From: Vulcanimicrobiota bacterium
GTDB lineage: Bacteria > Vulcanimicrobiota > Vulcanimicrobiia > Vulcanimicrobiales > Vulcanimicrobiaceae
Direction: 5' to 3'
Length of the DNA stretch: 64,000 nucleotides
NCBI GenBank assembly: GCA_963833095.1
Contig: CAWHWQ010000005.1
Coordinates: 160,001 to 224,000, forward strand
The number at the start of each line of letters is the position of its first letter. The stretch's first letter is position 1. Shown here one piece after another: positions 49,902 to 54,410 of this stretch. A program made the position numbers and the translations under genes. Under the pieces are notes generated by a model, which worked only from the letters and a program-made list of their open reading frames with translations, was not told where the DNA came from and made no database searches.

Positions 49902-51320
49902 CTACCCGCGCGGGCACTGGGCGGTTTCAGCGGCGCGCTTGCTCTCGCTGGCCGTGACGGCGAGTCCCTGGCCAGCGCATCGATCGCGTGCCAGCGCCCG
50001 CTGCCGCCAGCGCGCGCGCGGCGCGCGCCGCTTATCGCGGCGTCGCTTGCCGGCGCGATCGAGCGGCGAGAACCAGGCCCAGGTGACGTTGGCCGGTTGG
50101 AAGTCGTGCGGTCTGCGGCGTTCTGCAGGTGCGCGACGACCGCGCCGAGCGCGGTGTCGCGCGGGAACTCGACGGGCGGCAAGCCCAGCAGCGCTGCGTG
50201 CCGCGTGCGATACCGGCCATCGCGCCGCAGGCGGCCGCCTCGACGTAGCCTTCGGCGCCGGTGATCTGCCCCGCGAAGTAGAGCGCGTCGTGCGCCGCGC
50301 AAGCGCAAGCTGCGCGTCGAGCAGGCGCGGCGAGTCGATGAACGTGTTGCGGTGCATCACGCCCAGGCGCAGCCACTCCGCGTTCGCGAGGCCGGGCAGT
50401 TTGCCGAACGCTTCTTTTTGCGCCGGCCACGTCAGGCGCGTTTGGAAGCCGACGAGGTTGAGCGCGGTGCCGTCCGCGTTTTCTTTGCGCAGTTGCACGA
50501 CCGCGTAGCGGCGTCTTGCCGGTCCGCGGATCGCGCAGGCCGACCGGCTTGAGCGGGCCGAAGCGCAGCGCGTCGTCGCCGCGCTCGGCCATCTCTTCGA
50601 TCGGCAGACAGCCTTCGAAGTACGGTACTTGCCGGCGCGACGTCGACTCGAAATCTTTGGGCTCGTGCCGCGGCAGCGTGCGCAGATCGTGCGATGAAGC
50701 TGCGCGTACTGCTCGCGGTCGAGCGGGATGTTGAGATAGTCGTCGCCGTCGCCCTTATCGTAGCGCGACTTGCGATACATCGGCGACTCGTCGATCGAAT
50801 CGGCCGCCACGATCGGCGAGGCCGCATCGTAATAGTGCAGCCGGCCGCTTCGCCGACGAGACGCGTCGAGTCGATGCGCGGCAAGCGCGTCGATCGGGCA
50901 GCGGCCCGCAGGCGACGATCGCCGGACGGTCGCAGCGGAATCGCGGTCACTTCTTCGCGCATGAGCGTGATGCGCGGGTGCGCCGAGCAGCCGCGACTCG
51001 ACCGATCGCGCGAAACGCTCGCGGTCGACCGCCAACGCGCCGCCGGCCGGCACGGCCGCTTCGCGCGCCGAGGTAACGATCAGCGAATCGAGCCGCGCCA
51101 GTTCTTCTTTCAGCAAGCCGACGGCGTTCTCGAGCGCCGCGCCGCGCAGCGAGTTGCTGCAGACCAGTTCCGCCAGCGCGTCGGTCTGGTGCGCGGGCCC
51201 GCTGGAATGCGGGCGCATCTCGTACAGATCGCACGTCGACGCCCGCGCTGCGCGAGCCTGCCACGCGGCTTCGCAGCCGGCGAGGCCGCCGCCGATGACG
51301 GAGTCGTCAGCAGCGCGCAT
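49902..51320 (-). CDS. trmFO: tRNA m5U54 FADH2-dependent methyltransferase, frameshifted
   Basis: [47 protein letters not shown]. Confidence 0.9.
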
Positions 51321-53542
51321 CGAGATCCGCAGCGGCGGATTCCAAGCGCATCGCGCCGCCGGCTCGTCTCTTCGCGAGTTCGCGGCTTCGCTCGGTCTCG
51401 CGCGGCGCTTGCCAGCGACGACACGTCGTGCTTCTTGTCGGCGCGCGCACTCGAAGCGCACGACGCCGCCGCGCTTGGTTTTCGCGACGACGTAGAGCCG
51501 CAGACCGGGCACGGCTGCGGGAACGACGCGATCCCACGAGACGAAGTCGCACTTCGGGATAGTTGGCGCAGCCGTAGAACGTGCGGCCCTTGCGCGACTT
51601 GCGCTCGACGATCATGCCGCCGTCCTTGGGACAGATCGCGCCGGTGTCTTTGAGGATCGGCTTCGTCGTCTTGCACTCGGGATAGCCCGTGCACGAGATG
51701 AACTTGCCGAAGCGGCCGGTCTTGATGACCATCGGCCGCTCGCAGTTCGGGCAGATCTCGTCGGTCGGCTCGTCGCGTTGATCTCGAGACTTCGGCAGCT
51801 TCTTCTCGGCGTCCTCGAGCTCGAGGGCGAACGGTCCGTAGAACGTCGCGCAGCACGCCGACCCAATCGGCCGTCGCCCTCGGCGACTTTGTCGAGATCG
51901 CCCTCCATCGCGGCCGTGAAGTCGAGATCGACGATGTCTTTGAAGTGCTCGGCCAGCAGGTCGTTGACTGCGATGCCGATCTCGGTCGGTGAAAGCGGCG
52001 CTCTTCTTGCGTCGACGTAGCCGCGAGCCTGAATCGTATCGACGATCGTGCAGTAGGTCGACGGGCCGGCCGATGCCGTTCTCTTCGAGCGCCTTCACCA
52101 GCGAGGCTTCGGTGTAGCGCGGCGGCGGCTCGGTGAAATGCTGCTTCGGGTCGATGCGCGCGGCGGTCGAGCGCATCGTCGCTCGAGCAATTCGGGCAAA
52201 CGCACGCGGGTCTTGCCTTTGCGGCGCGCCGTTGGTCTTGGCCGCAGCGTCGCCATTTTGCGCGTCTTCGTCTTTGCCTTCTTCATATACGCGGGTGAAG
52301 CCGGCGAACTTGCACGAGCTGCCGGTCGCGCGGAACGTGTAATCGCGCGGCGCTGATATCGACGGTCGTTTGGTCGAAGACCGCCGGCGCCATCTGCGAA
52401 GCGACGAAGCGCTCCCAGATCAGCGTGTACAGCCGCAGCTCGTCGCGTTTGAGCACGTGCGCGACGCTATCGGGCGTGCGAGAGACACGGTCGGGCGGAT
52501 CGCTTCGTGCGCGTCTTGCGCGCCTTCGCGCACTCTTGTACGGTCGCTCCACCGTGAAATTCTGCGCCGTAGGTCGCGGTCGATGAACTCGCGGGCCGCA
52601 TCGCGCGCCGAGTCGGCGATGCGCGTCGAGTCGGTACGCATGTAGGTGATCAGACCTTGGGTGCCGTCGGCCCCGCCCAGATCGACGCCTTCGTAAAGAG
52701 CCTGCGCGATCTGCATGGTGCGCCGGACGCGCAAGCGTCAACTTGCGCGAGGCCTCTTGCTGCAGGGTCGAGGTGGTGAACGGCGCCGGAGCGTTGCGGC
52801 GCACCTCGCGGCGCTTGACCGACGCGACCGAAAACGCCGCGCCTTCCAGAGCGCGCATCACCCCATCGGCCTGTTCTTGGTTGGTGATCTCCAGCTTCTC
52901 GCCACGATGCGAGACCAGATCTGCCGGGAAGACGATTGCCGGATCGCGCTCGGTCGCGAGCTGCGCGGTCACGGTCCAGTACTCGCGCGGAATGAAGGCC
53001 CTGATTTCGCGCTCGCGGTCGACGATCAGCCGGACGGCCACCGACTGCACGCGCCCGGCCGAGAGGCCGCCGCGGACCTTGGCCCAGAGCAGCGGCGAAA
53101 TTTTATAGCCGACCAGCCGGTCGAGAATGCGTCGCGCCTGCTGCGCGTTCACGCGATCCATATCGATCTGATGCGGGATTTGATTGCGGCGAGCGCCGCG
53201 TCTTTGGTGATCTCGTGAAGTTCGATCCGCTTGGGGTCTTGGAGCTTGAGCAGCTCGGCGAGATGCCATGCGATCGCTTCGCCTTCGCGGTCGGGGTCGG
53301 TCGCGAGGTAGACCTCGCTCGCGGCTTTCACCGCGCTCTTGAGCTCTTTGATGACGTCGCCCTTGCCCTTGATCGTCAGATATTTGGGCGTGAAATCGTG
53401 TTCCACGTCGACGCCGAGCGTGATCTTGGGCAGATCGCGCACGTGCCCGACCGACGCCTTGACCACGATACCGCGGCGGGAGAAACTTCTTGATCGTCCG
53501 CGCCTTCGTCGGCGACTCCACGATGATCAGGGGCTTTTTCAC
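51307..53542 (-). CDS. topA: Type IA DNA topoisomerase I, frameshifted (3' end approximate)
   Basis: [40 protein letters not shown]-terminal Zn ribbons. Confidence 0.93.
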
Positions 53543-53549
53543 GGGCCTA

Positions 53550-53579
53550 AGTATACTCCCGGGGTCAAGACCTGGGCAA
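53550..53579 (-). promoter_or_regulatory. Putative sigma70 promoter of topA (leaderless)
   Basis: TTGCCC-18 nt-TATACT, then 7 nt to the GTG start. Confidence 0.6.
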
Positions 53580-53592
53580 ACCCGCTGGGCCC

Positions 53593-53640
53593 TACGCGCA
53601 CGCGTATGTGCGCGCGTACGCGTGCGCGTACGTGCGCGCG
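53593..53640. repeat. 48-bp perfect alternating pyrimidine-purine tract (four imperfect 12-mers)
   Basis: TACGCGCACGCG TATGTGCGCGCG TACGCGTGCGCG TACGTGCGCGCG. Confidence 0.9.
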
Positions 53641-53642
53641 AT

Positions 53643-53671
53643 TTGCATGATGCGTCAAAATCCTTTATAGT
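53643..53671 (+). promoter_or_regulatory. Putative sigma70 promoter of the histone-like gene
   Basis: TTGCAT-17 nt-TATAGT. Confidence 0.7.
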
Positions 53672-53741
53672 GCGCTTAAAGCGCAATTCGTGCGCTGTCC
53701 AAATAACGCTGTTCGTCCCCCCGGGGGACGAGGAGGAATGA

Positions 53742-54134
53742 ATGGACTCCGATACCATGATGAACGGCGAGACAATGGCCGAGGCTAAGAAGCCGCGCCG
53801 TAAAGCTCGCCGCAAAAAGGCCGGGACGGCCAAAAAGGCAGCCGGCGGACGCAAGAAAGCGACGCGAAAGAAAGCTGCCGGCGGACGCAAGAAGTCCACG
53901 CGAAAGAAGGCCGCAGGCGGACGCAAGAAGGCGACGCGCAAGAAGGCTGGACGCAAAAAGGCCGGCGGACGTAAGAAGAAAGCCGGCGGACGCAAGAAAA
54001 AAGCCGGCACGCGCAAGAAAGCCGCTGGACGTAAGAAAGCCGGCGGACGCAAGAAAAAGGCCGTCGGACGCAAGAAGACCGCTGGACGCAAAAAGGCCGG
54101 CGGGCGCAAGAAGACCCGGAAGAAAAAAGCCTAG
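53742..54134 (+). CDS. Histone H1-like (Hc2/AlgP-type) Lys/Arg/Ala/Gly-rich protein
   Basis: AGGAGG RBS; tandem KKA(A)GGRKK units with synonymous codon variation; own promoter and terminator. Confidence 0.82.
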   Translation: MDSDTMMNGETMAEAKKPRRKARRKKAGTAKKAAGGRKKATRKKAAGGRKKSTRKKAAGGRKKATRKKAGRKKAGGRKKKAGGRKKKAGTRKKAAGRKKAGGRKKKAVGRKKTAGRKKAGGRKKTRKKKA

Positions 54135-54169
54135 CGTTTTGACGCGCTCATCACCCTAGCTTTTAATGA

Positions 54170-54198
54170 AGGCGGACGAAAGTCCGCCTGATTTTTTT
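54170..54198 (+). terminator. Rho-independent terminator
   Basis: AGGCGGAC-GAAA-GTCCGCCT-GA-TTTTTTT. Confidence 0.75.
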
Positions 54199-54200
54199 CT

Positions 54201-54410
54201 TGCCGCACGATGCGGCTGAAGGTTCGGAGCACAGGATGTGCGACCGCCGAAGGCGGCCGAATCGTCTTATGCCGCACGATGCGGCTGAAGGTTCGGAGCA
54301 CAGGATGTGCGACCGCCGAAGGCGGCCGAATCGTCTTATGCCGCACGATGCGGCTGAAGGTTCGGAGCACAGGATGTGCGACCGCCGAAGGCGGCCGAAT
54401 CGTCTTATGC
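54201..54410. repeat. Three identical tandem 69-bp multi-hairpin repeats
   Basis: Units start at 54201, 54270 and 54339. Confidence 0.92.

Follow-up and report, generated by a model that had tools for sequence, protein, structure and literature searches.

We describe a tract of 48 bp in which pyrimidines and purines alternate without interruption, at positions 53593-53640 of a 64,000-nucleotide stretch of a Vulcanimicrobiota genome (contig CAWHWQ010000005.1, positions 160,001 to 224,000; hereafter the window), between the divergently transcribed genes for topoisomerase I (topA) and for a lysine/arginine-rich (K/R-rich), histone-like protein. The tract is unique in its genome, occupies a fixed site upstream of the -35 element of the K/R-rich gene, and shows selection on its alternation across three genera. 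It is probably a left-handed-DNA (Z-DNA) element under selection and responsive to DNA twisting. On balance, and with confidence just past the midpoint, we favour its interpretation as a selection-maintained, Z-DNA-prone element in the shared control region of the two genes. Topoisomerase I relaxes negative supercoils, and the locus is thus that of a gene whose product sets supercoiling. The broader proposal, that the tract constitutes a natural bacterial Z-DNA switch, with the cell using a transition from B-form to Z-form (B-Z transition) at the topA/histone-like control region to read or limit its negative supercoiling, is held more tentatively, a little short of even.

Selection on an alternating tract beside topA

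The tract (TACGCGCACGCGTATGTGCGCGCGTACGCGTGCGCGTACGTGCGCGCG; no strand is assigned) is made up of 24 unbroken pyrimidine-purine (YR) steps, of which 15 are CG, four TG, one CA and four TA, and can be written loosely as (YRCGCG)8. TA steps fall at tract positions 1, 13, 25 and 37, and the segments 53593-53606 and 53617-53630 are exact reverse complements of 14 bp separated by a 10-nt loop. A script count upheld every descriptive number given for the tract in an earlier note made from the sequence alone (48 bp, 24 YR steps and their CG/TG/CA/TA make-up), together with the presence of the perfect 14-bp inverted repeat and of four 12-bp units each starting with TA. Z-forming sequences are expected to show uninterrupted, CG-rich alternation well above 8-12 bp; with 48 bp and CG at 15 of 24 steps, the tract lies in that range and is a candidate B-Z switch. 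Over the 25 tracts parsed in genomes, CG accounts for 386 of 581 steps. In the genome as a whole (2,806,132 bases in 8 contigs, 62% G+C), scanning identified 1254 alternating runs of at least 12 nt, the lengths of which decay smoothly to 20 nt (6 runs) and 22 nt (1 run) before a single jump to 48. The concern that equally long tracts might be common in this genome is therefore answered by a next longest run of 22 versus 48. In this genome, CGCG and GCGC reach 2.2 times the frequency predicted from base composition and TATA half of it, which fits the report, in the available portion of a tree-of-life preprint, that Vulcanimicrobiota have the highest predicted Z-DNA density of any phylum (bioRxiv 10.64898/2025.12.30.697008). 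One look-alike of the junction, at C5:79121, lies within a permease open reading frame (ORF) and was taken as a chance occurrence.

The tract is not an assembly artefact, a possibility that the earlier note had raised. The contig of sequencing run X2 that spans 53553-53716 shows 0 differences from the window, and among the differences listed for the contig of run X1 that spans 53222-53871 none falls in the tract, all being located in the topA coding region. Both runs possibly derive from the window's own study, and independent support comes from the presence of the tract in the genomes of other species.

Of 26 species loci belonging to three sister genera (g1, that of the window, g35 and g36) of Eremiobacterota (Vulcanimicrobiota/WPS-2), 25 have a tract of 39-61 bp in this position. 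Searching with the topA N-terminus recovered an intact topA in 40 of 41 related genomes, and a perfect run of 39-48 bp lies upstream of the gene in 16 of the 17 g1 loci, window included; the seventeenth (L018) has runs of 25 and 27 bp with one base between them. One more genome of this genus (G007, 74% complete) is without a tract match and also without a topA match. Pattern searches, the tallies of which include one unpublished genome (G036), delimit this distribution. A 26-nt alternating pattern has matches in 19 of the 41 related genomes, and its counts within the genus of the window correspond to the topA tract alone, apart from a single further site in G015 and possibly another in G006. 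A 36-nt pattern is matched in 28 of 401 genomes of the phylum: 16 of 18 in g1 (counting the window's genome), all three of g35, all six of g36, and three others in which the matches are TG/TA/CA microsatellites with no topA nearby. The g35 and g36 tracts measure 43-61 bp and lie ~130-190 nt from the topA start, indicating that they occupy the same locus. The class-mates in family f3 yielded no match to either pattern (0/11 for the 26-nt and 0/30 for the 36-nt pattern).

Metagenomic contigs retrieved with the promoter block of the K/R-rich gene provided 19 loci, of which one is truncated by the end of its contig; they comprise 17 distinct sequences, and five contigs match a genome tract exactly. 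Without exception, their longest alternating run stops 1-2 bases short of TTTGC. The run is a perfect 43-48 bp in 13 of the 18 complete loci and reaches 27-33 bp in the other five, three of which (L144, L148 and L158) were examined and extend over 41-54 bp with one or two single, in-phase interruptions. Across 80 topA upstream regions, almost all from distant bacteria, the longest alternating run does not exceed 11 nt in 77, and the remaining three have runs of 14, 16 and 20 nt, the last belonging to a sister-family relative. The topA tree places g1 and g35 as sisters (support 91/93) and g36 in an unresolved fork together with four loci devoid of a long tract, and is compatible with what may have been one origin of the tract. 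The gene pair is older than the tract. In L025, the one sister-family locus examined for this, topA is transcribed divergently from a K/R-rich ORF of 168 aa, and the CG-rich blocks in between have broken alternation.

The anatomy of the region was derived from 25 loci (the remaining one, L055, was not parsed) and reads, from the topA start, as a conserved block of ~38 nt containing TATACT and GGCAAAC, a spacer, the tract, an [A/G]TTTGCAT block, a 17-nt spacer, TATAGT, a leader and the ATG of the K/R-rich gene. The distance from the tract to the -35 element of the K/R-rich gene is 0-2 bp in 25 of 25 genome loci; the tract is pinned to this element and not to the topA promoter. Tract lengths stay within narrow ranges, mostly 43-48 bp in g1 and 47-60 bp in g36. 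About half of the loci of the genus (L002, L004, L005, L006, L008, L010, L012, L016 and L145) carry a conserved insert of ~25 nt in the spacer, with a consensus near GTCCYGAGCKTGTCGAAGGATGGGGG, which may be a small indel element or a binding site; the window is without it.

The substitution pattern was analyzed on a gapless alignment of the 38 tract columns next to the promoter in 24 sequences, leaving aside L008 for its 2-nt phase shift. Although 35 of the 38 columns vary and mean pairwise identity is 0.70, the pairwise differences comprise 3145 of transition type versus 23 of transversion type, all 23 stemming from a single base of L018 (3289 versus 406 with L008 included). The N-terminal part of topA in all 25 loci gives the comparison: at its fourfold-degenerate sites, where identity is 0.63, transitions account for only 32% of differences (1620 versus 3485). 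The comparison of relatives proposed in the earlier note, which predicted conserved YR alternation under changing letters, was thus strongly positive. Kinship inflates pairwise counts of this kind, and the column counts and the comparison of close pairs are independent of it. In the closest pairs of equal length, L004/L005 and L013/L015, the tracts differ at 3/46 and 3/44 positions, all of them transitions and close to the fourfold transition rates of the same pairs (6.7% and 11.4%), and contain 0 transversions against the ~4.7 and 4.8 expected from fourfold transversion rates of 10-11%.

Alternation is broken by one in-phase transversion each in L002, L014 and L018, by the phase shift in L008, and at one or two positions in each of three metagenome variants. 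Such breaks are rare relative to a summed branch length of ~2.6 substitutions per site for the tract-bearing clades, as added up from the topA tree. One interruption, CGCGAGCGCG, in which a single A takes a pyrimidine position, recurs in L014, L018, L144 and L156, either through shared descent or as a recurrent tolerated change. Since transversions are nearly absent from the tract and make up a 68% share at fourfold sites, the alignment shows that alternation itself is under purifying selection, with transitions nearly neutral and alternation-breaking changes removed. Evolution has in this sense performed the mutagenesis: transitions kept at about the neutral rate and transversions removed are the signature expected if Z-forming potential is selected.

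The same contrast bears on the proposal that some other physical property of a G+C-rich block is what matters, the block acting as a stiff, hard-to-melt insulator between the promoters or excluding AT-preferring nucleoid proteins. Its location between divergent promoters suits such a role, and related families have CG-rich, non-alternating blocks at the same place. This function, however, would need G+C and not alternation, and it leaves unexplained why transversions should be near-absent against a neutral share of 68%; we regard it as improbable.

We consider marginally more improbable still that the tract is a functionless hexamer or dinucleotide microsatellite, in which slippage maintains alternation because all units are alternation-compatible. 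Tandem Repeats Finder reports periods of 6, 12 and 24 in the window's tract, related tracts show a 6-bp periodicity, and species differ in tract length by multiples of 2 (L002 and L003 by 12). Against slippage, all 25 parsed loci, from three genera, have the tract in the same position and within narrow length ranges, close pairs are equal in length and differ by point transitions with no gain or loss of units, pure (CG)n never exceeds 5 units in the 25 tracts, and the X1 and X2 contigs are identical over the tract. It also lies outside both -35/-10 spacers and any ORF, hence at no classical site of phase variation; the hallmarks of a contingency locus (identical units in a spacer or ORF and length polymorphism) are not those of this tract.

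A further structural alternative, extrusion of a cruciform from the inverted repeat under negative supercoiling, was part of the earlier note and did not survive comparison with relatives. The window's perfect 14-bp repeat with its 10-nt loop is reached by only 5 of 300 shuffles of dinucleotide units (1.7%, P = 0.017). In 22 of 25 related tracts, however, the best inverted repeat (arms of 5-14 bp across the set) is no better than in shuffled alternating sequence (P > 0.05), only 3 of 25 beating their own shuffles at P ≤ 0.05. Alternating CG-rich sequence is rich in palindromes, and the inverted repeat is therefore best seen as a by-product. By our estimate, which takes cruciform energies of ~13-18 kcal/mol and a relief of 3.6 turns, extrusion would set in only beyond the onset of the Z-form. 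With the inverted repeat not conserved, we rejected the cruciform reading, to which we attach a very small probability. Nor do the four TA-started 12-bp units describe the organization of the tract, as the TA steps are placed differently from one species to another and 6 bp is the dominant period.

Predicted B-Z transition and competing readings

The energetics of the transition were computed with B-Z parameters consistent with those of Table 1, and with the junction energy of 5 kcal/mol, in the available portion of PMC3024258. Conversion of the whole tract is calculated to cost ~36 kcal/mol and to absorb 9.4 superhelical turns, with onset at a superhelical density (sigma) of -0.030 in a very large domain, -0.035 in a domain of 10 kb and -0.046 in one of 3 kb, and the partition function describes a sharp switch. 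When the genome is scanned with the PMC3024258 energies, allowing imperfect alternation, the tract ranks first of 2.8 million start positions with a critical sigma (sigma_c) of -0.0291, ahead of a (CG)9 site at -0.0315 and of a 99.99% quantile of -0.0374, and its capacity exceeds that of other sites more than twofold. The genome-wide ranking of Z-propensity suggested in the earlier note thus identifies the tract as the site predicted to be easiest to drive into Z-form in this genome.

Predicted thresholds follow the distribution of the tract. The best onset upstream of topA ranges from -0.0273 to -0.0308 in 26 tract-bearing loci, from -0.035 to -0.050 in seven other loci of the family and from -0.034 to -0.043 in six sister-family loci, and has a median of -0.053 in 76 distant bacteria. 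The upstream region of gyrB in the same genome contains nothing comparable (a 10-nt run, sigma_c -0.042), and a search of this genome (completeness 80.7%) for gyrA (GyrA family, PF00521) gave no match.

Under the interpretation that we favour, the tract would be B-form at resting superhelicity, with its transition poised just beyond that level. A rise in negative supercoiling, triggered by limiting topoisomerase I or by the firing of both divergent promoters, would flip it into the left-handed form. The flip would absorb ~9 turns and clamp the torsional stress available to open the two promoters, each of which has a G/C-rich candidate discriminator, and the B-Z junction formed 0-2 bp from the -35 element of the K/R-rich gene would change the contacts of RNA polymerase there. 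The outcome would be a coupling of nucleoid protein expression and, less directly, of topA to superhelical stress; the scheme leaves the sign of the effect free at either promoter. The element and both promoters fit in ~200 bp, which makes them clonable and directly testable on plasmids in a laboratory host.

Several observations weigh against this interpretation. TA, the costliest alternating step, is over-represented 2.4-fold in the 25 tracts (76 versus 31 expected from T and A frequencies). A 6-bp recurrence of non-CG steps has a frequency of 0.479 versus 0.311 in shuffles, a deviation of ~6 standard deviations, and is accompanied by one at 12 bp; the 6-bp recurrence suggests either a hexamer inherited from an ancestral repeat or a register for protein binding. 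The parameters behind the energetics were obtained on plasmids in other systems and are here applied to an uncultured host, and the lead in threshold is small (-0.029 versus -0.0315). The spacer from the end of the conserved topA block to the tract is unalignable and varies from 10 to 79 nt, which rules out a fixed geometry with the topA promoter and makes the link to topA one of neighbourhood only. In other genera of the family, the same two genes are accompanied by runs of just 8-20 bp or by interrupted CG blocks, so that a long tract is not needed for topA control generally. Domain searches were negative as well: the Z-alpha domain (PF02295) had no match, a result that says little because the positive control also matched in no genome, and the C5 methyltransferase family (PF00145) had no match in the window's genome, 80.7% complete and with many frameshifts.

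The internal texture of the tract, approximately (YRCGCG)n, could reflect repeat ancestry, selection against slippage-prone pure repeats, or a protein-binding register. The last of these corresponds to the alternative that the tract is an array of protein-binding sites, in which a degenerate YRCGCG hexamer or alternating CG is read in B-form and acts upstream on the promoter of the K/R-rich gene, activating or repressing it; the binder could be an unknown regulator or the K/R-rich protein itself, in an autoregulatory loop. The tract is anchored 0-2 bp from the -35 element, where activators and the alpha subunit bind, T-rich columns occur every 6 bp at -10, -16, -22, -28 and -34 from the promoter end, the final six bases (CGCGCG) hardly vary, and the K/R-rich gene has 36-nt (12-aa) repeats of its own. 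Outside those last six columns, however, each column tolerates its transition partner, and with 35 of 38 columns varying no position-specific motif survives. The constituent words (GTAC, CGTACG, GCGTACGC and CGCGTACGCG) occur at Markov expectation genome-wide, with ratios of 0.87-1.18 and no regulon-like clustering, and the word CGCG is likewise at Markov expectation. To our knowledge, contiguous hexamer arrays with Y/R degeneracy alone are not a known type of operator. We retain a protein array as an unlikely explanation, mainly on account of the 6-bp and 12-bp periodicity of the non-CG steps.

Flanking promoters and genes

A consensus scan detected two promoter-like sites in the region, versus 0.3 expected in shuffles: TTGCCC-18-TATACT on the minus strand (53579..53550) and TTTGCA-18-TATAGT on the plus strand (53642..53671), the latter equivalently written TTGCAT-17-TATAGT. 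They correspond to the back-to-back sigma70-like promoters of the earlier note, which stand as described, with gaps to the tract of 13 bp and 2 bp. On the topA side, the -35-like TTGCCC (53574..53579, minus strand) lies in the conserved GGCAAAC block and is separated from the tract by the variable spacer (53580..53592, 13 bp here), and the -10-like TATACT (53550..53555, minus strand) ends 7 nt before the GTG start codon. On the other side, the -35-like TTGCAT (53643..53648, plus strand), within the conserved [A/G]TTTGCAT block, is followed after 17 nt by TATAGT (53666..53671, plus strand), which is conserved in relatives. Both -10 elements precede a G/C-rich stretch that is a candidate discriminator, TAGGCCC after TATACT and GCGCTT after TATAGT. 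As TATACT is only 7 nt from the GTG in this genus, the topA mRNA may be leaderless. Sister-family loci (L021, L025, L027 and L060) have a leader of ~30 nt with GGAGG between the topA start codon and the conserved GTATACTAAGGG block, which is the same as in this genus.

The topA gene itself (51307..53542, minus strand, with an approximate low end) starts at the GTG at 53542-53540, encodes a Toprim domain and is split over several frames in the window. In relatives, its open frames extend up to 933 aa, most being longer than 690 aa. The frameshift is an assembly or strain indel and not the mark of a dead gene, because contigs of runs X1, X2 and X4 are one base short at 53467/53468, precisely where the frame of the window breaks. 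Further small indels relative to public-run contigs are seen near 54161 and at 54179-54181, and hslU (~48.3-49.5 kb) and a trmFO-like gene (~49.9-51.5 kb) are also split over frames, which together with topA points to indel errors in the assembly.

The leader of the K/R-rich gene (53672..53741, plus strand) is 70 nt long and very conserved, and comprises two hairpins followed by a GAGGAGG ribosome-binding site. The first hairpin, AGCGCA-loop-TGCGCT, lies near the leader start, with a loop that varies and a stem that is longer in L049 and L050; the second, CGTCCCC..GGGGACG, directly precedes GAGGAGG. The TGCGC half-site is also found in a palindrome, TGCGCTTAAAGCGCA, across the likely start site of transcription of the gene. 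Comparison of the leader and its surrounding region against Rfam in five loci identified no family, three weak matches to microRNA and small RNA models being attributed to chance. RNA run X19 contributed four contig pieces only, each 90-95% alike and on conserved coding parts.

The K/R-rich gene (53742..54134, plus strand) encodes a repetitive basic protein of 130 aa, rich in lysine, arginine, alanine and glycine, which can be called histone H1-like by composition only. The protein had no match in Pfam, and a homologue search, uninformative for so low-complexity a query, returned one weak match among 8000 scored candidates. Its Atlas clusters are labelled 'hypothetical protein' from Vulcanimicrobiota, with a weak lead (0.88) to a cluster in which 28% of members bear HC2. 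Tandem DNA repeats with periods of 18, 21, 36, 39 and 57 nt occupy 53835-54114, and the peptide repeats, of roughly 6 and 12 residues, are of the type AAGGRKKATRKK. Just downstream of the gene, a perfect 69-bp tandem repeat (54201-54410, 3.0 copies, 100% identity) is preceded by a terminator-like hairpin at 54170-54189.

Comparison with known systems

The closest precedents for the tract are artificial. Engineered (CG)n inserts, in work attributed to Rahmouni and Wells in 1989 and 1992 and to Lukomski and Wells in 1994, reportedly served as in vivo probes of Z-DNA upstream of Escherichia coli promoters, on plasmids and on the chromosome. Like those probes, the topA tract is a CG-rich alternating stretch of tens of bp upstream of a promoter, where transcription leaves negative supercoils, and its transition is expected near physiological superhelicity. 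Unlike them, it is natural, has TA, TG or CA every few steps, is conserved in three genera and stands at the gene of the relaxing enzyme. Divergent fimbrial promoters of Haemophilus are said to carry phase-variable dinucleotide repeats between their -35 and -10 elements, and thus share with the tract a repetitive sequence in a divergent promoter region; the topA tract differs in lying outside both -35/-10 spacers, in its non-identical units and in a length that is kept between close relatives.

Torsion-responsive elements upstream of promoters have reportedly been described in other settings, including the ilvPG site of stress-induced duplex destabilization (SIDD) with IHF in E. coli, the c-myc FUSE, and the Z-DNA formed by the CSF1 TG repeat. 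In all of these, as proposed for the topA tract, an upstream structural transition under negative supercoiling rivals the opening of the promoter or serves as a readout of it; unlike the tract, they use strand separation or are eukaryotic. The SIDD concept itself is set out in the available portion of PMC2211533. The tract also resembles the supercoiling-sensitive promoters of topoisomerase genes (the homeostasis of topA and gyrA/gyrB, and sensitivity set by the discriminator; available portions of PMC8422995 and PMC6170449) in that the gene concerned is topA and a G/C-rich stretch follows the -10 of either candidate promoter. The mechanisms known for those promoters operate through promoter opening and spacer twist, unlike an upstream element of non-B DNA. 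According to the portion of PMC8422995 available, more negative supercoiling favours G/C-rich discriminators, and the response also depends on competing transitions in the vicinity, Z-DNA among them.

The regulatory role of Z-DNA in bacteria is an old open question on which the tract bears. A 2026 review, in its available portion, states that 'direct in vivo evidence ... remains limited' for bacterial Z-DNA and presents a torsional buffer as the leading hypothesis for its function (PMC13463272); on this basis, no natural bacterial regulatory Z-DNA element can be considered established. The tree-of-life preprint cited above describes prokaryotic studies of Z-DNA as few, and the word 'topoisomerase' is absent from its available portion (10.64898/2025.12.30.697008). 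In the literature on Z-DNA, topA, divergent promoters and this phylum, as judged by titles and abstracts, we found no description of a Z-prone tract occurring naturally at the topA of a bacterium. The idea that upstream Z-DNA can sense or buffer torsion is known, and what is new is a conserved, natural bacterial instance with a signature of selection. If the broader proposal of a Z-DNA switch is true, the tract would be the first regulatory Z-DNA element in bacteria with comparative support.

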